This document shows positions 830 to 37,383 of a stretch of DNA of 64,000 nucleotides, piece by piece. Made by a program: the position numbers and the translations under genes. How positions within the stretch are numbered: position 1 is the first letter of the stretch; every line of letters begins with the position of its first letter. The notes below the pieces were generated by a model, which was given only the letters and a program-made list of their open reading frames with translations, did no database searches and had not been told where the DNA came from. Origin of the DNA: Campylobacterales bacterium (lineage in GTDB: Bacteria > Campylobacterota > Campylobacteria > Campylobacterales > Nitratiruptoraceae); contig JALWIX010000013.1 in NCBI GenBank assembly GCA_027082175.1, positions 5,405 through 69,404 on the forward strand, in the 5' to 3' direction.

Positions 830-1315
830 CTAAACTCTACTCCACCCATGAAGTTTTTTACCTATAAAAACCACTCTTTTCTCCTCGAGCGAAGTATCGT
901 TAACGGCTACATAGTTGCATCTCTCCAAAAGAGTTTTAATCTCGTCTCTTTTTTCAACGTCTACAGGCAAAACAATATTCGCCGCATTTTTCATAATTCT
1001 GTAAGTTTTCCTTAGGAACTCTTCAATATTGTTTAAAGAGTCAATATCAAGATTTACAAAGACAGTATCGTACATGATTGAACGAAGATTATATTTATCT
1101 CTATTTTCAGTTATATATCTTACTTTTATATCTTCATCCTCTAGACTTTTTAGTTTTTCAAAAAGCTTCTCTTCAAATGTCACTATTTGTAGTTCAAACT
1201 CTCTTGCCTTAGCAAAATCGGCCAATCTTTTAGCGCTTTCATAATTGTCGCTAAACTGATACACCCTAACGCCCGGTAATTTTGGAATAATCTCAAAAAA
1301 CTCTTCTATCTTCAT
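830..1315 (-). CDS. Hypothetical protein, possibly a degenerate SAM-methyltransferase-like fold
   Basis: ATG at 1315 follows a GGAGGAG RBS and overlaps the pgeF stop (ATGA); YDTVFV...LRKTYRIMKNAANIV resembles methyltransferase motifs. Confidence 0.55.
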   Translation of the reverse strand: MKIEEFFEIIPKLPGVRVYQFSDNYESAKRLADFAKAREFELQIVTFEEKLFEKLKSLEDEDIKVRYITENRDKYNLRSIMYDTVFVNLDIDSLNNIEEFLRKTYRIMKNAANIVLPVDVEKRDEIKTLLERCNYVAVNDTSLEEKRVVFIGKKLHGWSRV

Positions 1316-2007
1316 CTCTCCTCCCTCCATATGACTCCTACAAACCTACCGGTTTGTTTTTCTCTTCTATATGAGAAATATTTTTGGCTGCAGCATGTGC
1401 AAATAGCGCTTATCGCTATATTTTCTTCCCTCAATCCCAATCTAATCAACGAATCTCTATTTATAGAAGAAATATCAAGATATCTTTTATCTTTTAAATA
1501 TTTCTCTCCATATTTTTTCAAAACGATATCAACAATCTCATCGCCAACCTCATAACAGCAACTTTTGATCGAAGGTCCAAAAATAGCTTTAATGTTTTGG
1601 ACATTACAACCGAAAGTTTGAACCATTTTATCAGCACATTTTTTAGCTATATCTAAAAAAGTACCTTTTCTACCGCTATGAATGGCGGCAATGACACCTT
1701 TTTTCTCATCAAACATCAAAATAGGGATACAATCAGCCACCATTACGCATAAAGCTATATCCTCTCTATCGGTTACAAGGGCATCGCATATATATCTTTT
1801 TTTATCATACTCTACTATCTCTATTTTATCGGAGTGAATCTGCTCCATAAATATTAGCTCTTTTCCCCCTACTCTTTTTCTTAGAATCTCTCTGTTTTTC
1901 AAAACATCATTTTTATTGTCTCCAACATGCAAAGCAAGATTGAAACTCTCATAAAATTCTTTGCTAACTCCTCCGTATCTATCGGTAAAAAGATAGTTTG
2001 CTTTCAA
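1312..2007 (-). CDS. pgeF: Peptidoglycan editing factor PgeF (YfiH family)
   Basis: FNLALHVGD, QIHSD, VADCIPIL, HSGRKG, GPSIKSCCYEVG and FSYRRE motifs. Confidence 0.9.
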   Translation of the reverse strand: MKANYLFTDRYGGVSKEFYESFNLALHVGDNKNDVLKNREILRKRVGGKELIFMEQIHSDKIEIVEYDKKRYICDALVTDREDIALCVMVADCIPILMFDEKKGVIAAIHSGRKGTFLDIAKKCADKMVQTFGCNVQNIKAIFGPSIKSCCYEVGDEIVDIVLKKYGEKYLKDKRYLDISSINRDSLIRLGLREENIAISAICTCCSQKYFSYRREKQTGRFVGVIWREER

Positions 2008-2064
2008 ATTAATCCTTTAATTTATATAATTTTGATATTAGATATATTTTGGATATAGTAAACA

Positions 2065-2126
2065 AGTATGTTGGTATATTTGTGTATCGGTTTTTCTATC
2101 TTTTCCCCAATACGCTAATATACCCA
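2065..2126. repeat. Intergenic imperfect palindrome with octamer-periodic arms (TATTGGTA/TACCAATA family), copy 1
   Basis: Left arm gtatgttggtatatttgtgtatcgg matches the reverse complement of the 6395-6419 arm at 21/25 positions. Confidence 0.6.
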
Positions 2127-2153
2127 CCTCCTTACTTCAAAAATCTACTAAAT

Positions 2154-2597
2154 CTATAAAATTTTCGAATCGACTATAAAAGTTACAGGTCCGTCATTAA
2201 CTATTTCAACCTCCATCATAGCGCCAAAAACCCCTTTTTTTACCTCCGCCTCTTTTCCAATCTCATCACAAAATCTCTCATAAAGTTTTTCAGCGTCATC
2301 TGGAGCCATAGCGGAATCAAAACTAGGTCTTCTTCCTTTTTTTACGCTTCCTGCTAAAGTAAACTGAGAAACCACTAAAACTTCTGCGCCAATATCCTTT
2401 AAACTCAAATTCATTTTACCTTTTTCGTCGGCAAAGATTCTTAGATTTAAAACTTTTTTTGCAAGCTTTTCTATATCTTTCTCACTATCATCTTTAAAAA
2501 CTCCAAGAAGTATGTTCAACCCCCGCCCTATTTCACTTATCAATTTTCCATCAACTTTTACACTACTTCGTTTAACTCTTTGGATCAACGCAATCAT
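2154..2597 (-). CDS. dtd: D-aminoacyl-tRNA deacylase
   Basis: MIALIQRV start after an AAGGAG RBS; SQFTL, GRRPSF and NDGPVT motifs. Confidence 0.96.
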   Translation of the reverse strand: MIALIQRVKRSSVKVDGKLISEIGRGLNILLGVFKDDSEKDIEKLAKKVLNLRIFADEKGKMNLSLKDIGAEVLVVSQFTLAGSVKKGRRPSFDSAMAPDDAEKLYERFCDEIGKEAEVKKGVFGAMMEVEIVNDGPVTFIVDSKIL

Positions 2598-2662
2598 AGC
2601 TCTCCTTGACATAGAAGATTAATTTAACTATATTATATCTAAGCTTGCTTTAAGGAGGCAAA

Positions 2663-3283
2663 ATGGTTTTTAGAGACAGATTTGAGGCAGCCGAACTTCT
2701 TGCCGAGAAACTAAAAGATTACATAGACGAAAAAAGCGTAGTTGTGGCTCTTCCACGAGGAGGAGTTCCATTGGCTTTTGTTATTTCCAAAAAGTATCAA
2801 ATCCCTATGGATATATATTTTGTTAAAAAGATTCCTAGTCCCTACAACCCGGAAGCGGCAATAGGAGCTATTAGCGAAGATGGAGATATCTTCACAGACG
2901 AAAAAGCTAAACTTATGCTAAATGTTGCGGATCAATATATAGATGAGCTTGCACAAAAGAAAAAAGAGGAGATGAGAGCAAAAAGAAAGCTCTATAAAAA
3001 AGAGAAAACAGATTTAAAAGGTAAAAATGTTATTTTGGTAGATGACGGTATAGCTACTGGAGCAAGTATGTTTGTAGCGGCAAAATCGATAAAAAATATG
3101 GGAGCGGAAAGAGTCATCATAGCATCTGCGGTAGCGCCTCCAGAAGTTGTCACAAAACTGAAAAAGGTTGCCGATGAGGTAGTTTTGCTTCAAACGCCAC
3201 CAGATTTTATAGCGGTAGGGCAATTTTATCAAGATTTTCATCAATTGAGCGATGACGAGGTAATTGAACTTTTAAGCTTATAG
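2663..3283 (+). CDS. Phosphoribosyltransferase family protein
   Basis: FRDRFEAA, LPRGGVP and VILVDDGIATGASM (PRPP-binding) motifs. Confidence 0.88.
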   Translation: MVFRDRFEAAELLAEKLKDYIDEKSVVVALPRGGVPLAFVISKKYQIPMDIYFVKKIPSPYNPEAAIGAISEDGDIFTDEKAKLMLNVADQYIDELAQKKKEEMRAKRKLYKKEKTDLKGKNVILVDDGIATGASMFVAAKSIKNMGAERVIIASAVAPPEVVTKLKKVADEVVLLQTPPDFIAVGQFYQDFHQLSDDEVIELLSL

Positions 3284-4018
3284 CCGTATTAAAAGGCTTA
3301 AAATCCCGAAATACTCATGCAGCGCCAAATAGGAGTTTTTAAAATTTTTCATCTTAGGGAAAAAAGACCAAAAATCTATCTGCATTTTTGAGCTCTTATA
3401 ATCTGTTTTAGAAGCGGTGACTTTAAAACCAAAATATTTAAAAAGCATATACGCCCGCGGCATATGGTATGCGGAAGTTACAAGATAGATAGAGACTCTT
3501 TTGTTTCTCTTTTTGAAAAGATTATATACATATTTTGCATTTTGATATGTATCTTTACTCAAAGCTTCTATATAGTAGGTTTTCGGCGTAAAATCTTTTG
3601 AATAACGATATCCAAGCCCAAATCCTTCGTTTATCTCTTCGATAACTCTTTTTGCTCTATCGCTCTCTATTCCGCTATAAATTAGTGGGAGATTTTTACG
3701 ATTTGAAAGCATTAAGCCCCAAAGCACTCTCTTCGTTCCATCGCTGCTTAAAGGGAGATTTTTTGCTCCTTTTACCTCCCCTCCTCCCAAAACAACAACC
3801 GCAACTGGATCGGAAGCTTTTGGAAAACTTTTATACTCAAGAGGCTTTAAAAGTAGATTAGGCGCAAAATCGGTAGATAAAAACCAAAAAAATGAAGCTA
3901 AAACAAAAAGCGTTTTTTTAAATTTTTTTGCAAAAAAAGAGGCGGCAAATAGTGCCGCTATAAATATTCCAGGAGGTAGTATCAGATATGTAAATAGTTT
4001 TGAGATAAAATATATCAT
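3278..4018 (-). CDS. YdcF/DUF218 family membrane protein
   Basis: N-terminal TM segments; VVVLGGG, SKDTYQNA, LVTSAYHMPRA and ALHEYFG motifs. Confidence 0.88.
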   Translation of the reverse strand: MIYFISKLFTYLILPPGIFIAALFAASFFAKKFKKTLFVLASFFWFLSTDFAPNLLLKPLEYKSFPKASDPVAVVVLGGGEVKGAKNLPLSSDGTKRVLWGLMLSNRKNLPLIYSGIESDRAKRVIEEINEGFGLGYRYSKDFTPKTYYIEALSKDTYQNAKYVYNLFKKRNKRVSIYLVTSAYHMPRAYMLFKYFGFKVTASKTDYKSSKMQIDFWSFFPKMKNFKNSYLALHEYFGILSLLIRL

Positions 4019-5010
4019 TCTATGATATAGACGCCCTTTTCACCCTCTATCAATTCGCCTAAAATATACCCGTCCGTCTCTTTTAAAACATCATCTACCT
4101 TTTCAGACGAAACCACTAGTATCATACCAATACCCATATTGAAGGTTCTAAACATCTCCTCTTCATCTACATATTTTGAGATAAACTCAAAAATCTCCAA
4201 AGGCTCTATTTGGCTCTTTCTAATAACGGCTTTAACGTTATTTGGAAGGACTCTTGGCAAGTTTTCTACTATACCGCCGCCAGTTATATGCGCTAACGCT
4301 TTTACTTTATCTTTTACTTTTTTAAAAGTTTTGACATATATTTTTGTTGGTTCTAAAAGTACTTCTATCAAAGGTTTTCCGTTAAAATCATGCGAATAGC
4401 TCCACTTTAACTCTTCAAAAAAGAGTTTTCTAACCAAAGAAAAACCGTTTGAGTGAATACCGCTCGATTTAAGAGCTATCAAAACATCGCCCGCTCTTAC
4501 TCCCCTATTTTTTTGAAGTTCCTCTTTTTCTGCTATTCCTACGGCAAATCCTGCCAGATCAAAATCATCCTTTTGATACATTCCCGGCATCTCGGCAGTT
4601 TCACCGCCTATTAGAGCGCACTCACTCTCTTTGCATCCTTTTGCTATCCCTTTGATCACCTCTTTTGCCGCATCTACGTCAAGCTTCCCTGTTGCGTAAT
4701 AATCCAAAAAGAAAATAGGCTCTGCAAAAGAGCAGATAAGATCGTTTACGCACATAGCAACAAGATCAATACCTACCGTATCGTAGATTTTAGACTCGAT
4801 AGCAAGCTTTAGTTTTGTTCCTACACCGTCCGTTGCTCCAAGTAATACTGGATTTTTATATCCTGCAGGCAGAGCAAACGCTCCGGCAAAACCTCCAAGT
4901 CCGCCTATCACGTTTTCGTTAAAAGTCTCTTTCACAAAAGGCTTTATCTCTTCAACCAATCTACTTCCGGCGTCAATATCAACGCCGCTATCTTTATAAC
5001 TTATCTTCAT
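4015..5010 (-). CDS. purM: Phosphoribosylformylglycinamidine cyclo-ligase
   Basis: YKDSGVDIDAG, TDGVGTK, GGETAEMPG, HSNGFSL and HITGGG motifs. Confidence 0.97.
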   Translation of the reverse strand: MKISYKDSGVDIDAGSRLVEEIKPFVKETFNENVIGGLGGFAGAFALPAGYKNPVLLGATDGVGTKLKLAIESKIYDTVGIDLVAMCVNDLICSFAEPIFFLDYYATGKLDVDAAKEVIKGIAKGCKESECALIGGETAEMPGMYQKDDFDLAGFAVGIAEKEELQKNRGVRAGDVLIALKSSGIHSNGFSLVRKLFFEELKWSYSHDFNGKPLIEVLLEPTKIYVKTFKKVKDKVKALAHITGGGIVENLPRVLPNNVKAVIRKSQIEPLEIFEFISKYVDEEEMFRTFNMGIGMILVVSSEKVDDVLKETDGYILGELIEGEKGVYIIE

Positions 5011-5033
5011 CAATTTTCCTTAACTTTTAACTA

Positions 5034-5261
5034 TCAACTCTCATTATCTTCTTTTTTCTTATCCCAATCGCACTTTCCAAAAACTTTGTTAAAAAACCAA
5101 AGACTAGGACAAAAGTTTGTAAAGGCAAATATTATAATCATAACTATTATAAACGTCTGTAACGCGAATCCAATTTTCACAGTCTCAGGATTTGCCAATA
5201 ACCCCATAGATATTCCCAACATTATGGCCATTAATATTCTTTGCGCTTTATCTCCGCACAT
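5034..5261 (-). CDS. Small membrane protein, DUF2892/YgaP-like
   Basis: ATG after an AAAGGAG RBS; two hydrophobic helices followed by FCP. Confidence 0.6.
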   Translation of the reverse strand: MCGDKAQRILMAIMLGISMGLLANPETVKIGFALQTFIIVMIIIFAFTNFCPSLWFFNKVFGKCDWDKKKEDNES

Positions 5262-5507
5262 CGTTTCTCCTTTTATCAAAATTGCTTCAGTGAGAAAATA
5301 GATAAAGAATGAGGAATCTTAAAGTTTTTCTGATTCTAACTAAAAAGTTAAACTTGATTTTACATCTACTTGCAACTCAAAATAGTTATGCCATCCCTCT
5401 TTCTTAACCTAAATTATATCATCTAAGGGCTTAACTTTTTGTTTATTTAATAATCTTGTGATAAAATCAGACAAAAATTATCTAAAATAAACTATATGGG
5501 AGAAGAA

Positions 5508-6347
5508 ATGTGGTTTGAAGAGATTCATAACAACTTTTTTAAACAGGGTATAAAAGTAGAGAAGAAACTTTTTGAAACAGTAAGCAAATATCAAAAGATA
5601 GAGGTTTACGACTCAAAAGAGTTCGGAAAGATTTTGGTCATAGATGGACACGGTATGCTCTGCGAAAAAGATGAGTTTATATATCATGAAATGATGGCTC
5701 ATGTAGCAATCTGCACACATAAAGAGCCTAAAAAAGTTTTAATTATTGGAGGAGGCGACGGAGGAGTTGCAAAAGAGGTCTTAAGACATCCTGGTATAGA
5801 AGTGGATATGGTTGAGATTGATGAAGAGGTAGTAAAGATTTCAAAAGAGTTTTTTCCAAACATCGGAGACTGGGATAACGATAGACTAAATCTTATCATA
5901 GGCGACGGGATAGAGTTTGTAAGAGAAGCGAAAGATAAAAGCTACGATATCGTTTTAGTCGACTCTACCGATCCAGAAGGCCCGGCCGAGGGGCTTTTTA
6001 ATAAAACCTTCTACGCACACATTAATAGAATCTTAAAAGATGACGGACTTGTTGTGGCTCAAGGGGAGAGTTGGTGGATAGATATGCCTTTGCATAAAGA
6101 GATTATGGGAGTAATCGGCGAGTTTTTTAAGATAGTTATGCCATATAGATTTGAGATGTATATGTATCCTGGCTGTAACTGGAACTTTATTTTAGGAAGC
6201 AAATTTTATCATCCTACCGCAGATTTTATTTTGCAAAGAGCAGACCTTATCGATGGTCTTAGATATTACAACTCTGATATCCATAAAGCCTCTTTTATCT
6301 TGCCAAATTACGTAAAAAAAGAGCTCGGAGAACTTTATAAATGGTAA
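5508..6347 (+). CDS. speE: Polyamine aminopropyltransferase (spermidine synthase)
   Basis: SKYQKI, DEFIYHEM, VLIIGGGDGG, VEIDEEV and DSTDP motifs; start could alternatively be 5496. Confidence 0.95.
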   Translation: MWFEEIHNNFFKQGIKVEKKLFETVSKYQKIEVYDSKEFGKILVIDGHGMLCEKDEFIYHEMMAHVAICTHKEPKKVLIIGGGDGGVAKEVLRHPGIEVDMVEIDEEVVKISKEFFPNIGDWDNDRLNLIIGDGIEFVREAKDKSYDIVLVDSTDPEGPAEGLFNKTFYAHINRILKDDGLVVAQGESWWIDMPLHKEIMGVIGEFFKIVMPYRFEMYMYPGCNWNFILGSKFYHPTADFILQRADLIDGLRYYNSDIHKASFILPNYVKKELGELYKW

Positions 6348-13153: not shown

Positions 13154-13219
13154 GCTAACACACTTTGAAGCTTTTTTCGTTTATGCAAAGCGTAGCAAGA
13201 AGCAGTTAATGAGGATTTA

Positions 13220-13295
13220 GGAATTAGGAATTAGGAATTGGGAATTGATAAGAAGATTTTAATTAACAAATTCCCAATTCCTAATTCCCAATTCC
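13220..13295. repeat. Heptamer-armed palindrome (GGAATTR)4 ... (NAATTCC)4, copy 1
   Basis: Four tandem GGAATT(A/G) units, a 20-nt spacer, then four inverted units; lies just upstream of the thrS RBS. Confidence 0.9.
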
Positions 13296-13314
13296 ATTTT
13301 TTAAAAGGACTTTA

Positions 13315-15662: not shown

Positions 15663-15668
15663 CTTTTA

Positions 15669-15741
15669 TAATTAGGAATTGGGAATTAGGAATTAGCTTA
15701 TTTAAAAAACACAAATTCCCAATTCCAAATTACCAATTACC
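15669..15741. repeat. Heptamer-armed palindrome, copy 2
   Basis: GGAATTG GGAATTA GGAATTA ... AAATTCC CAATTCC AAATTAC CAATTAC between infC and rpmI. Confidence 0.88.
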
Positions 15742-15811
15742 TCTTTATTTTAATCTCCCATTTATAAACTTTCGATATAATATGCACCTTAAATTCTGCA
15801 AAGGAGAAAAG

Positions 15812-19248: not shown

Positions 19249-21105
19249 ATGGTTATTAAAAAAGAGGCCGCAAAAATTTTGATCGCACTATATAGAAGTG
19301 ATGATAAAACTATTAATGTGGATAAACTCAACAGTGAAGCTATTATGGAGTTGAATCTTGCAGGTATTGTTAGATTTCCTATGCCATCTAAAATAGAGCT
19401 GACATATGGCGGAAAATTAGTTGCTGAGGTTTTAGAGAGGGTTAAAGATAAAATCCAAAATTTAGATGGTTGGAAAGAAAATTTCAAATGGATCAGCAGT
19501 GAAGTTATAGCTATGATAGATGCTGCTGTAAAAAGCAAAGAAAAAACGACAAAAATATCTCAAGATGAACTTTTAAAAAGAGGTTTTGCTGATGAAAACG
19601 GTAACTTAACCAAAGAGGGAAAAGATATATATGAAGCTTACAAAATAATAAAACCAGAGCTTGTTATAGACGCTAAACTTGCCGACTATATAAGAAAATC
19701 GCCTATGGGTCCTACAGATGCGCACTATCTGCCAATAGTTGGAAATAGCAAAGATCTGCTTGAGGCTATGAGGCTTATAGCATACTCAATGCCTATTGGT
19801 GAATACTTTACCTTCACAGGTTTAGGACAAGTTGTAAAAGAGACACTTACTTTAGGCGGATGGGCAAATGAAGGAAGTGTTTTAGATATCTCTATTTTAG
19901 AGGATATTGCAAAAGTAGCTGACGGAGAAGAGTTAGAACTTGAAGCGTTGACAAATCTTGAAAGTTTAGGATATATTGAAGATACAGACAGATTGACAAT
20001 GGCCGGAGAAAAAGCTTTAGAGGTTTATAGAATATACAAAGATTTAGAAGATAAGCCATTCAAATCTTTTGCTATCGAAAAAGAAGAGGTTGAAACATTA
20101 AAAACAATACAAAAAATCTGGGATGAAAAAACTGCTAACAATCCTGAAGAACTTCCAACTTTTGAAGAGATAAAAAAAGAACTTGTAGATAGAAAAGTCG
20201 CCGAATATAAAAAAATAGTTGAAAAATATGGCAGAAGATTAGATGAAATGCCAAAGAAAAAACAAGAGATCGCCAAAAAATATAGCGAAGCAAAAGATAT
20301 GGTGAAATGGTTTGAAGAGAATTTTGATCTAAGAGAGTATCTATACTCCTTGGAGGCTTTTGGACTTATTAGAGAAGGAGTAGATAAATCCGGAAGAGAG
20401 GTGTATTTTGTTACAGAAGATGGAAAAAAAGTAATAGAAGATCAAACTGACGAAAGAAGTATACACTCTTGGAGTGTTAAGACTCTAACAATTTCAAACA
20501 AAATTTTCAGCTCTCCTAACAAAGAGTGGGTAGAAGAAGCAAGAGGAGAGAGAATTCTTGGCACATACGAGCCTAGCAAATCTGGACTTTTATACGAAGA
20601 ACTAGCAATAAAACCTAAACTTCCATTTATGACAAAATATGAGATGGAGATATTTAAAACGATTCCGGACTCTGGAATTGCTTGTGATGAACTACTTGAA
20701 AATAAAAATGAAAAAGAAAAAACGAGAATTCTTGAGAGTTTAGATAAATTGGAAGCAAAAGGTTTTATAGAGATACTTCCTGATGGACATATCATAGAAA
20801 CCAAATATGGAAAACTTATGGATGAAGCGATGAGCGGAGTTCCCGAAGGATTTGGCGCGCCTGTTAACCCTACAATCTACAGAGTTGTAAAAGCGATTGC
20901 CCAAACCGGAAGTATGTATGTTAAAGAGAAAAAGGTAAGAATACTTCCTAAAAATATAAAGGAAGCCATAAAAAGAAGCGGACTTAGCAAAGAGGTTTTC
21001 GATAAAGCTTATATAGCCGCAAGAGAGGCTAAGTATCTAGGTAAAAATAGCGTAAATGAAGCGGGACTGAAAATGCTTGAAGCGGTAGAGGCTCTAAACT
21101 CTTAA
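19249..21105 (+). CDS. Uncharacterised 618-aa protein, probably DUF505 family (repeated winged-helix-like segments)
   Basis: AGGAGG RBS; recurring L-x-x-L-E-x-x-G-x-I ... L-T-x-x-G patterns; the family name is from recollection, not a search. Confidence 0.65.
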
Positions 21106-21152: not shown

Positions 21153-21517
21153 ACTCATTTTAGATTTATCCCAAGGAAGATCGTTATAAATTCCGTGTCA
21201 GTTGGATAGTTAGATAAAATAAAGAGAAAGGACTGACATGGAAGAATTTGATTTTAACAAAGCAGTAAAAGATTTGCTTGCAGGGAAGAAGATAAGTGGT
21301 AAAGATGGCGTATTAGCTCCATTGGTAAAACAATTAGTAGAGGCTGCCCTTGAAGCTGAGATTGAGTCTCATATAGCCGATGAAGTCTTAAAGGGCAAAA
21401 AGAATCGTAGAAACGGTTACAACAGGAAAAAGATAAAAAGCAGTGACGGGGAGTTTGAGTTAGCTACTCCAAGAGATAGAGAGTGTTCATTTGAGCCTCA
21501 AATCATTAAAAAACACC

Positions 21518-21552
21518 TTCTGCTTGCAGTGATGTGAGCGTAAGCGAAACGA
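21518..21552 (+). mobile_element. 35-bp insertion, copy 1 (REP/MITE-like mini-element)
   Basis: TTCTGCTTGCAGTGATGTGAGCGTAAGCGAAACGA splits the CAA codon of K-H-Q-T-T-I-S-D. Confidence 0.85.
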
Positions 21553-22374
21553 AAACAACCATTAGCGATGAGATAGAGGAAAAAATCTTATCGATGTATG
21601 CTCTTGGGATGAGCTACACCGATATTTCAAAGCATATCGAAGAGATTTATCACATATCTTTATCTACTGCTACAATTAGCAATATCACCGATAAAATTAT
21701 TACAAAAGTCAAAGAGTGGCAACAAAGGCCATTAGAGGCTATATATCCTTTTATCTGGTTTGATGCAATTCACTATAAAATTAAGGATAATGGCAAATAT
21801 GTTAGTAAAGCCGTCTATACGATATTGGGTGTGAATCTTCAAGGCAGAAAAGAGATATTGGGACTTTACCTCAGTGAGAGTGAAGGAGCAAATTTCTGGC
21901 TGCAAGTTTTAACAGATTTAAACAATCGAGGAGTTCAGGATATTCTAATAGCTTCAGTTGATGGGCTTAAAGGTTTTCCAGAAGCTATTAATACGATATT
22001 TCCAAAAACAGAGGTACAATTATGTATAGTGCATCAGATAAGAAACTCTTTAAAATATGTAGCATCTAAGAACCAAAAAGAGTTTATGAAAGATCTCAAG
22101 CTTGTATATCAAGCTATATCCAAAGAAGTAGCAGAAGAAAAGTTAGATAAGCTTGAAGAAAAATGGGGTAAAAAGTATCCCATAGTAATTAACTCTTGGA
22201 AAAACAAGTGGGAGAATCTATCAAACTATTTCAAATATCCTGAACCTATTAGAAAAATCATCTATACTACCAATATCATTGAATCTGTACATAGACAATT
22301 TAGAAAACTAACAAAAACTAAAGGAGCGTTCCCAAATGAAAACTCACTTTTAAAACTGCTATATATGGGCATTC

Positions 22375-22409
22375 TTCTGCTTACAGTGATGTTGAACGAA
22401 GTGAAACGA
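22375..22409 (+). mobile_element. 35-bp insertion, copy 2 (REP/MITE-like mini-element)
   Basis: TTCTGCTTACAGTGATGTTGAACGAAGTGAAACGA splits the CAA codon of G-I-Q-N-V-Q-K-K-W. Confidence 0.85.
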
Positions 22410-22603
22410 AAAATGTCCAGAAAAAATGGACAATGCCAATTAAAAATTGGAATCTGACACTTTCTCAATTGGCTATTTTCTTTGAAGGCAGGCTTGATAA
22501 AGCCCTGGTTATCTAGTTTATAGTATAATTTGAAGGTGACACGGAATTGTGAATATTCTTCTTTAGCCCCGCTGCTACATAGGGGGAGGGGCACTTTTGT
22601 GCC

Positions 22604-24244: not shown

Positions 24245-24256
24245 CTGTTTCCTTTT

Positions 24257-24331
24257 GGAATTGGGAATTAGGAATGGGGAATTTGCGAAAAGTTAATGTG
24301 TACTAGTTCCAAATTCCCAATTCCTAACTAC
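24257..24331. repeat. Heptamer-armed palindrome, copy 3
   Basis: GGAATTG GGAATTA GGAATGG GGAATTT ... TAGTTCC AAATTCC CAATTCC TAACTAC; abuts the mqnD RBS. Confidence 0.88.
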
Positions 24332-24399
24332 TAATATTTATGGATATTTTACTTAAAAAAAGATAAAATATTATTAATTTCTATGATGAGAGGTTTTGA

Positions 24400-37230: not shown

Positions 37231-37297
37231 TAAAAGCCTTTTACAGGTAAATTAATCTTTATAAAATTTATGATATTATAGCACATTAAATATTATA

Positions 37298-37365
37298 GGA
37301 ATTGGGAATTTGGAGTTTGGAAATAGTGTTTTTTTCTAAATTCCCAGTTCCAAATTCCTAATTCC
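37298..37365. repeat. Heptamer-armed palindrome, copy 4
   Basis: GGAATTG GGAATTT GGAGTTT GGAAATA ... AAATTCC CAGTTCC AAATTCC TAATTCC; just upstream of the accB RBS. Confidence 0.88.
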
Positions 37366-37383
37366 AAATAGCAAGGATTAAGA

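Follow-up and report, generated by a model that had tools for sequence, protein, structure and literature searches.

Ultra-short, precise insertions in IS256-family transposase genes of a Campylobacterales bacterium and its relatives

In a 64,000-nt stretch of contig JALWIX010000013.1 from a Campylobacterales bacterium (the window), the transposase gene of an IS256-family insertion sequence (IS) is interrupted by two related 35-nt segments, which we call family A. We find that these segments are real, precise, DNA-level insertions. Our preferred reading, to which we give a probability of about 0.55, is that they belong to a group of ultra-short (23-40 bp), non-coding, non-autonomous elements that insert precisely at 5′-C↓AAA-3′ (the arrow marks the point of insertion) and that occur, so far, only in IS256-family transposase genes. 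Integration would take place between the C and the A of the target, roughly [A/C][A/T]N-C↓AAA, leaving target bases neither duplicated nor deleted, and mobilisation would presumably be carried out in trans by an enzyme encoded elsewhere. The restriction to transposase genes could then reflect real targeting of IS256 DNA, or survival only where an insertion is tolerated.

Two precise 35-nt insertions in one transposase gene

An earlier reading made from the letters alone (the sequence-only reading) had placed two same-orientation copies at 21518-21552 and 22375-22409, and both coordinates proved exact, on the plus strand. Repeating the alignment of the two copies gave the same value as before, with 31 of 36 columns matching and two offsetting 1-nt indels. 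The 18-mer conserved in both occurs 2 times in the window against 0.09 expected by chance. As found, the transposase gene is split into open reading frames (ORFs) of 99 aa and 307 aa, and look-ups of these two exact products found no record. Deleting both segments yields a stop-free ORF of 402 aa, in agreement with the sequence-only reading; it matches Pfam PF00872 (Transposase_mut, Mutator/IS256) over essentially its full length (positions 10-375 of 379, E=8e-107) and is 84-93% identical to hundreds of intact 402-403-aa homologues, including those of Lebetimonas isolates, which are named IS256 family transposase in their source records.

The junctions were checked by comparing the locus with contigs of four hydrothermal-vent metagenomes. 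Many related IS copies in these contigs lack the segments, and at both sites each joint is, on balance, exactly 35 nt shorter than the window's sequence, so that target sequence was neither duplicated nor lost. Examples of empty alleles read CAC C-AG-ACA and ATT C-AG-AAT, and one reads CACC↓AAACAACC. In addition, the exact empty allele of an IS nearly identical to that of the window is present as DNA in one contig (X3). These uninterrupted copies confirm the junctions that had been proposed. The earlier description of insertion at C↓AAA without duplication holds for the joints, each insert following the C of a CAA codon with A as the next base; it is loosened by the intact relatives, which carry either CAA or CAG at the two insertion codons.

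Apart from the two elements, the window's IS contains no lesion. Copy 1 (variant v1) supplies an ATG-TGA reading in the upstream frame, and an overlapping GTG at 21534-21536 opens the native downstream frame; in copy 2 (variant v2) the upstream frame has no stop. Comparison of the copies supports separate insertions of different variants of one family. Variant v1 differs from variant v3, which we observe at the same codon in two other loci (L060 and L063). Copy 2 is orthologous to a 36-nt in-frame version in L069 (protein match P0047), in protein match P0121 and in a contig of set X1, and is best read as the 35-nt, out-of-frame state of an old insertion at this site. The idea of two independent hits on a pristine IS therefore survives as far as the different variants go, while copy 2 does not appear to be a fresh insertion.

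Family A and related families outside the window

We searched for further copies by an exact-match pattern in one genome per species (the GTDB representatives, a collection that excludes the window's own genome), metagenomes, viral contigs and plasmids. The scan of GTDB representatives gave one true copy, in a Campylobacterales metagenome-assembled genome, and about three chance matches, as many as expected; the metagenome scan gave five further true copies. Among viral contigs there were 52 matches, all of them to an unrelated conserved phage gene or due to chance, and scanning the plasmid collection with the elements gave chance-level partial matches only. The true copies (L001/L066, L059, L060, L061, L063 and L069) all lie in transposase genes, measure 35 nt (36 in L069) and follow the C of CAA; the family-A copies are in sense orientation with A as the next base, and their removal restores the frame. 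Copies outside the window, on which the proposal of a mobile family had been made to depend, thus exist in both a genome and metagenomes.

These copies fill a small number of glutamine codons. Site 1 (KK[H/N]-Q-TT) is filled in the window, L060 and L063, the latter two with v3, and site 2 (GI-Q-N) is filled in the window, L069/P0047, P0121 and an X1 contig. Site 3 (E[I/V]-Q-RCIVH) is filled in L001/L066, L059 and L061, whose transposases belong to a subfamily only 40-50% identical in protein to that of the window. Two contigs of the vent metagenome X2 provide a candidate fourth site, with the element after ...NSIKHKASKN, corresponding to Gln268; their right flank is more like the sequence after site 2, and the context is partly resolved. 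In total, family A occupies about four glutamine-codon sites across the two subfamilies. The commonest variant is v3, which has one internal base fewer (GTAAGCG to GTAGCG) and an extra 3′ A, and is thereby still 35 nt. Of the two X2 contigs, one of 514 nt (depth 228) and one of 190 nt, the left flank is that preceding Gln268 and the right flank resembles that following Gln368, an arrangement that could be an internal deletion of ~300 bp through recombination between two element copies in one IS.

The filled L060-type site, with identical flanks, was found in metagenomes from anaerobic digesters, landfill, biogas and biofilm, in one case on a contig of 51.7 kb, and the filled L063-type site in wastewater and freshwater runs, showing that the phenomenon is not confined to vents. 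Altogether, the same element recurs in ten or more independent assemblies, whose sources are vents, wastewater, freshwater, digesters, landfill and biogas. In the X2 vent metagenome, this IS256 family reaches contig depths of 1000-4000 in dozens of diverged variants, and is thus extremely abundant there; depth over the site-2 element is only ~220-320, making filled copies a minority, roughly 10% at site 2.

Comparison of elements with their flanks indicates that insertion has been recurrent and recent. The L060 and L063 elements are identical at 35/35 positions within flanks that are 67% identical (P=7e-7); the corresponding values are 34/36 against 67% for the window and L063 (P=8e-5) and 34/35 against 68% for L059 and L061 (P=3e-5), with P from 3e-5 to 7e-3 in the tests on pairs other than L060/L063. 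Since the L060 and L063 flanks already differ 1-8 nt from the left junction, short-patch gene conversion does not easily account for this identity. Both filled and empty alleles are also on record, the exact empty allele of the L063-type site being found on contigs of 24.8 kb and 6.3 kb. The L063 gene, like the window's IS, has no lesion besides its elements, and so in these copies the insertions preceded ordinary decay. Identical 35-mers in diverged flanks, together with the filled and empty alleles, bear out the suggestion of a mobile family of ~35-bp non-autonomous elements, and support the view that family A is mobile, or has been so recently.

Additional short inserts accompany family A in the same transposase genes. 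Family B is 23 nt (CTTGTGCTTGCACTCTCTGTGAG) and is present as two copies in L060, one of them reversed, and as one reversed copy in L001. Family C/C′ is 38-40 nt and has the form GTC...GAC, C being carried by L059 and L061, and C′, which is reversed relative to C, by L001 and L059; family D, 35 nt, is in L059. Read in each element's own orientation, 12/14 junctions are C↓AAA, the remaining two being T↓AGA and C↓AGT. Modules are held in common: A and B contain TGCTTGCA...TGTGAG, the 3′ half of A is similar to the 5′ half of C′ (TGAGCG(T)AAGCGA.AAC), and there is a like resemblance between the 3′ part of A-v2 and the 3′ end of C (AACGAAGTGA). The families have 40-61% G+C compared with 35% for the genome. 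The common target and modules support a predicted superfamily, A to D, of ultra-short inserts (23-40 bp).

Two of the loci deserve separate description. L060, on the reverse strand, carries one A insert and two B inserts, with the C-terminal B at FF↓EG, and a single-base deletion near codon ~210 of its transposase (GTACT-ACAGAT) shifts the frame. The segment at 2090-3469 (minus strand) of L001, which equals 4516-5895 (minus strand) of L066, is a decayed IS carrying A, C′ and B. It adjoins a 459-aa ORF with the N-terminus MRKAVITILGTVGG..., which looks like a candidate CRISPR-associated protein of the CARF/Csx1 type. A CRISPR array sought around L066 was absent within 10 kb and the elements bear no resemblance to a CRISPR repeat, and an origin from CRISPR repeats was rejected.

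Restriction to transposase genes, fate of the inserts and competing explanations

All known contexts, about a dozen copies, are IS256-type transposase genes, consistent with the preference for mobile-element DNA that the sequence-only reading had suspected. The window contains 1308 CAAA/TTTG sites, only 25 of which lie in the IS, and yet both copies are in the IS (P=4e-4), with ~50 housekeeping genes uninterrupted. No copy of any family was found in the remaining ~25 kb of the other loci, outside IS genes. We regard this as strong evidence, at the scale of the DNA covered rather than genome-wide, that the elements are probably restricted to IS256-type genes. A search with the concatenated element-encoded peptides against 5.8 billion sequences gave no match at E<=10; a match of only ~12 aa can never become significant in a set of this size, and the search is therefore uninformative on other gene families rather than negative.

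Several considerations weigh against our preferred reading. The restriction to IS256 genes rests on ~90 kb of non-IS DNA and roughly a dozen copy contexts, and the exact-match pattern may have missed diverged members and other contexts. If only non-ORF DNA and the IS are counted as neutral space, the enrichment in the window becomes marginal (P=0.056). A mobilising enzyme was sought among ~50 genes of the window, and none was identified; these genes are housekeeping only and include no Y1/HUH gene. An element with no terminal repeats, hairpin or duplication fits no known transposition chemistry. Finally, the constant phase of the family-A copies could arise merely because the DNA target motif is a little longer, [A/C][A/T]N-C↓AAA, which fits five sites in the window's gene, four of them in the observed phase.

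The elements are retained in the DNA, some of them in genes that have regained their frame. In L069/P0047 the site-2 element is 36 nt, with an extra A, and is read in frame as GI-LLLAVMLNEVKRK-NAQKKW in an otherwise intact 414-aa ORF, the IS being 78-87% identical in DNA to that of the window. P0121, a further and diverged copy, contains the same in-frame peptide, and the extra A is likewise present in the site-2 element of the X1 contig. A 1-nt deletion 13 nt upstream allows the 40-nt C insert of L059 and L061 to be read through. In some lineages, the healed elements are thus in-frame insertions of 12-13 aa. Such compensatory indels imply that the mRNA keeps the insert and that selection disfavours the frameshifted state.

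The elements might alternatively be the remains of a few ancient insertions that have no present mobility and were spread passively, by transposition of the carrier IS (in trans), recombination or gene conversion. We consider this unlikely. Inheritance fits the site-2 copies of the window and L069, which match at 34/36 positions in flanks 87% identical (P=0.14), and A, C, C′ and D are distributed over L001, L059 and L061 as a mosaic, as from recombination; L059 and L061 also have further lesions in common. However, the identical v3 copies of L060 and L063 lie in flanks of 67% identity, where any tract of conversion would have had to stop right at the junction, and the at least four A sites together with the B, C and D sites would need many independent insertions in one gene family.

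It is about equally doubtful that family A is a cassette for recoding or gene splitting that selection on the IS maintains, yielding two coupled pieces or a rare shifted fusion that attenuates or regulates transposition in the manner of OrfA/OrfB in IS3-type elements. Among the six combinations of orientation and phase, the observed one alone combines an upstream-frame stop (ATG-TGA, at the seventh codon) with a GTG restart into the native frame; the GTG overlaps the stop as GTGA, and the downstream path is open. Family-A copies at all sites have this configuration, variant v2 excepted. Additionally, the internal deletion that distinguishes v1 and v3 is offset by the 3′ A, which preserves both the 35-nt length and the frame from GTG to junction, and the window's IS and L063 are lesion-free apart from the elements. 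From these reading frames, family-A insertions may, under our preferred reading too, leave a translationally coupled two-piece gene, and such insertions may be the ones that persist. Against selection for this arrangement, the GTG is not preceded by any Shine-Dalgarno-like sequence, insertion at site 3 or 4 divides the catalytic core, the stop-restart arrangement is lacking in v2 and in families B, C and D, and the healed in-frame derivatives suggest that the frameshifted state is costly. The longer DNA target motif could mimic the phase bias, and the independent events are too few to separate it from selection for stop and restart.

A third possibility, which we hold as tentatively as the two above, is that a dedicated enzyme system, belonging to a host anti-IS defence or to a hyperparasite of the IS, detects IS256-type transposase genes or intermediates of their transposition and writes 23-40-bp cassettes at the C↓AAA of glutamine codons, with family A as a stop-restart module that turns a one-ORF transposase gene into a coupled pair of ORFs. 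If true, this would define a new class of mobile DNA and a new integration chemistry. Less probable still is an anti-transposon defence in the strict sense, in which a host system recognises IS256-type genes or transposition intermediates and writes inactivating cassettes into them. Location exclusively in transposase genes, insertion often as the sole lesion of an otherwise intact IS, and several cassette families with one target would all suit such a system. On the other hand, no candidate system was found in the window or beside the other loci examined, both orientations occur and some inserts are read through harmlessly, and in X2 an IS at depth 1000-4000 with a filled minority of ~10% at site 2 is not effectively silenced. 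To our knowledge, no known defence works by writing cassettes into transposase genes.

We consider it very improbable that the gene is kept functional by intron-like removal of the insert from RNA or by ribosomal bypass. The window's IS was sought in RNA runs and was in none of them. In four salt-lake metatranscriptomes, the L063-type IS is expressed at depth 38-314; none of their contigs covers the element, and in one, whose flanks are those of L063 itself, precisely positions 306-340 (35 nt) are missing. The identical empty junction, however, is the one on the 24.8-kb and 6.3-kb contigs; these are of even depth and most likely genomic DNA, and transcripts of uninterrupted alleles thus explain the RNA result. 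Rfam matches, conserved structure and matched take-off and landing codons are all absent from the elements, and compensatory in-frame versions would not be selected if the element were removed. The RNA evidence is by itself neutral on splicing; combined with the healed in-frame versions, it makes splicing unlikely. An assembly, adapter or chimera artefact, a concern raised in the sequence-only reading, is excluded because JGI, ENA, NCBI and Logan assemblies, made independently from more than ten samples and several habitats, show the same elements in the same codons, on long contigs among others.

Should mobile elements of this kind be confirmed, they would rank with the smallest mobile DNA known from bacteria and would be the first reported to live specifically inside the transposase gene of another mobile element. 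With neither terminal repeats, hairpin nor duplication, and with a target specified on two sides, their anatomy means that the responsible enzyme could reveal a new, precise mode of short-DNA integration. The copies also provide a natural record of IS inactivation followed by repair through compensatory indels, and may point to a level of conflict, whether between one parasite and another or between host and IS, that current IS annotation writes off as 'frameshifted pseudogenes'. In practice, recognising the elements lets annotators restore many 'broken' IS256 transposase genes.

The host insertion sequence and comparison with known systems

The features of the interrupted IS are collected in Table 1. 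Its ends are imperfect 24-bp terminal inverted repeats (AAGATCGTTATAAATTCCGTGTCA / AAGAATATTCACAATTCCGTGTCA), and its boundaries follow from X1 chromosomal contigs that agree with the window to 21176 and resume from 22561. The single ~400-aa Mutator-type DDE transposase, the 24-bp terminal inverted repeats and a length of ~1.3 kb are those of the IS256 family.

Table 1. Coordinates in the window of the IS, its transposase gene and the two inserts
Feature	Position	Strand	Remarks
IS256-family insertion sequence	21177..22560	+	~1384 bp with both 35-nt inserts, ~1314 bp without; ends approximate to a few bases
Left terminal inverted repeat of IS	21177..21200	+	From local alignment of both IS ends
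Transposase gene segment 1	21238..21517	+	Codons 1-93 and the C of Gln94
Family-A element, variant v1	21518..21552	+	35 nt, site 1 (KKH-Q-TT); TTCTGCTTGCAGTGATGTGAGCGTAAGCGAAACGA
Transposase gene segment 2	21553..22374	+	Rest of Gln94 to the C of Gln368; DDE core inside
Family-A element, variant v2	22375..22409	+	35 nt, site 2 (GI-Q-NV); TTCTGCTTACAGTGATGTTGAACGAAGTGAAACGA
Transposase gene segment 3	22410..22516	+	Rest of Gln368 to the TAG stop
Right terminal inverted repeat of IS	22537..22560	-	From local alignment of both IS ends

The IS is flanked by a DUF505 gene and murB and sits among ordinary housekeeping genes of a chromosome with 35% G+C. The DUF505 protein (618 aa, E=2.5e-231; 19249-21105), encoded immediately 5′ of the IS, is large and conserved with no function assigned, and the same is true of a DUF7897 protein (615 aa, E=2.7e-217) encoded at 55781-57628. 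Relatives of the transposase at 70-86% identity are found in Lebetimonas, Hydrogenimonas, Halarcobacter, Arcobacter, Aliarcobacter and Sulfuricurvum, and the C-terminal transposase segment has a close relative in Yersinia enterocolitica as well (ISsod5-like); named relatives across these genera indicate wide horizontal spread of the IS. Very many of the protein matches (P0123-P0240) are C-terminal fragments of this transposase family of 131, 140 or 143 aa, and broken or contig-truncated copies are thus common. We rejected these fragments as restart products; they start at a native Met or Val (MKDLK..., VASKNQKEF..., MKYVASKN...) that is not derived from an element. The window also contains four intergenic palindromic units (13216-13301, 15664-15746, 24253-24337 and 37294-37371), each of about four tandem (A/G)GGAATT heptamers, a spacer of ~20 nt and inverse AATTCC(C/T/A) heptamers, which look like a repeat family of the repetitive extragenic palindromic (REP) or terminator type.

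We compared the 23-40-nt inserts with known small elements and recoding signals, and found no description of such elements in the literature searched. RNA and DNA folds of all families are no better than those of shuffled sequences (z -1.4 to +1.2), with no structure conserved between variants, and Rfam gave no match even at E<=10. Terminal repeats of the elements do not exceed 3-4 nt, and nothing in the elements resembles the IS ends or other sequence in the window. The HUH/RAYT-type single-strand mechanism offered in the sequence-only reading finds no footing, with no significant hairpin in any family and no such gene in the window; since no fold is better than shuffled and Rfam gave nothing, we reject hairpin-dependent HUH mechanisms and known RNAs as well.

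Transposable elements of the miniature inverted-repeat type (MITEs) are likewise short, non-autonomous insertions, presumably mobilised in trans and found inside genes and IS elements. However, MITEs have the terminal inverted repeats of a parent IS and target-site duplications, and are usually >50-100 bp, whereas the present elements are 23-40 bp, without terminal repeats, duplication or similarity to IS ends, and their filled and empty alleles differ by exactly the element. REP/REPIN sequences (mobilised by RAYT, a HUH Y1 enzyme) and palindrome-associated transposable elements (PATEs) derived from IS200/IS605 are also short (REP ~20-40 nt), cause no target duplication and adjoin a short specific sequence, which for PATEs is a tetra- or pentanucleotide 5′ of the insertion. 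Yet these are imperfect palindromes, extragenic and high-copy, with only the 5′ flank specified. The present elements have no stable hairpin and are intragenic, with two copies in 64 kb; the subterminal hairpins of PATEs are absent from their 23-40 nt, and although duplication is absent in both, here conserved bases flank both sides, C on the left and AAA on the right.

Other comparisons concern elements that are translated or recoded. Rickettsia palindromic elements (RPEs) are small repeats in ORFs that are translated when in frame, as are the healed 36- and 40-nt versions; RPEs are ~100-150 bp, palindromic and in frame in many unrelated genes, leaving the frame unbroken. Translational bypass elements (the T4 gene 60 gap and the byps of Magnusiomyces mitochondria) resemble our elements as 27-55-nt non-coding insertions that break the frame of ORFs in the DNA, and byps look mobile. 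Bypassing requires matched take-off and landing codons and a take-off hairpin. We found no codon pair that restores the protein and no hairpin, and ribosome hopping cannot restore a glutamine whose codon is split by the insert. In IS3 and IS1, the OrfA/OrfB layout, reviewed along with bypass elements in PMC5009743, has two consecutive frames with the second in -1, and family A gives a one-ORF IS256 gene that layout. In IS3/IS1 it is ancestral, with a slippery heptamer and programmed -1 frameshifting; here it is made by a 35-nt insertion. No slippery heptamer precedes the TGA in the element, and the run of A bases upstream of site 1 belongs to the gene itself and has no counterpart at sites 2 and 3. 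By hand inspection and the analysis of orientation and phase, ribosomal hopping and -1 frameshifting were rejected as general explanations. A self-splicing intron (group I or group II) is ruled out as well by the lack of an Rfam match and by a length of 35 nt, which is far too short.

The closest described precedent is the small dispersed repeats (SDRs) of cyanobacteria, ultra-short precise insertions reportedly presented in 2008 (Genome Res 18:1484) as 'very small mobile repeated elements'. Like the elements studied here, SDRs are precise insertions of a few tens of bases (21-27 nt) in DNA that is otherwise conserved, other mobile elements included, encode no enzyme and have an unexplained mechanism. 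PMC5861425 gives SDRs as restricted to Nostocaceae. Only family B, at 23 nt, falls within the SDR size range, and the other attributes of SDRs are not those seen here. SDRs are high-copy (hundreds dispersed) and mostly intergenic, several of them with a shared predicted secondary structure, whereas the present elements are low-copy and unstructured, with a C↓AAA target in IS256-type genes of Campylobacterota-like bacteria, which are of another phylum. Our elements differ from SDRs in structure, copy number, target and host-gene specificity, and there is a real chance that these ultra-short, non-autonomous elements will prove a categorically new kind of mobile DNA once their mechanism is found.

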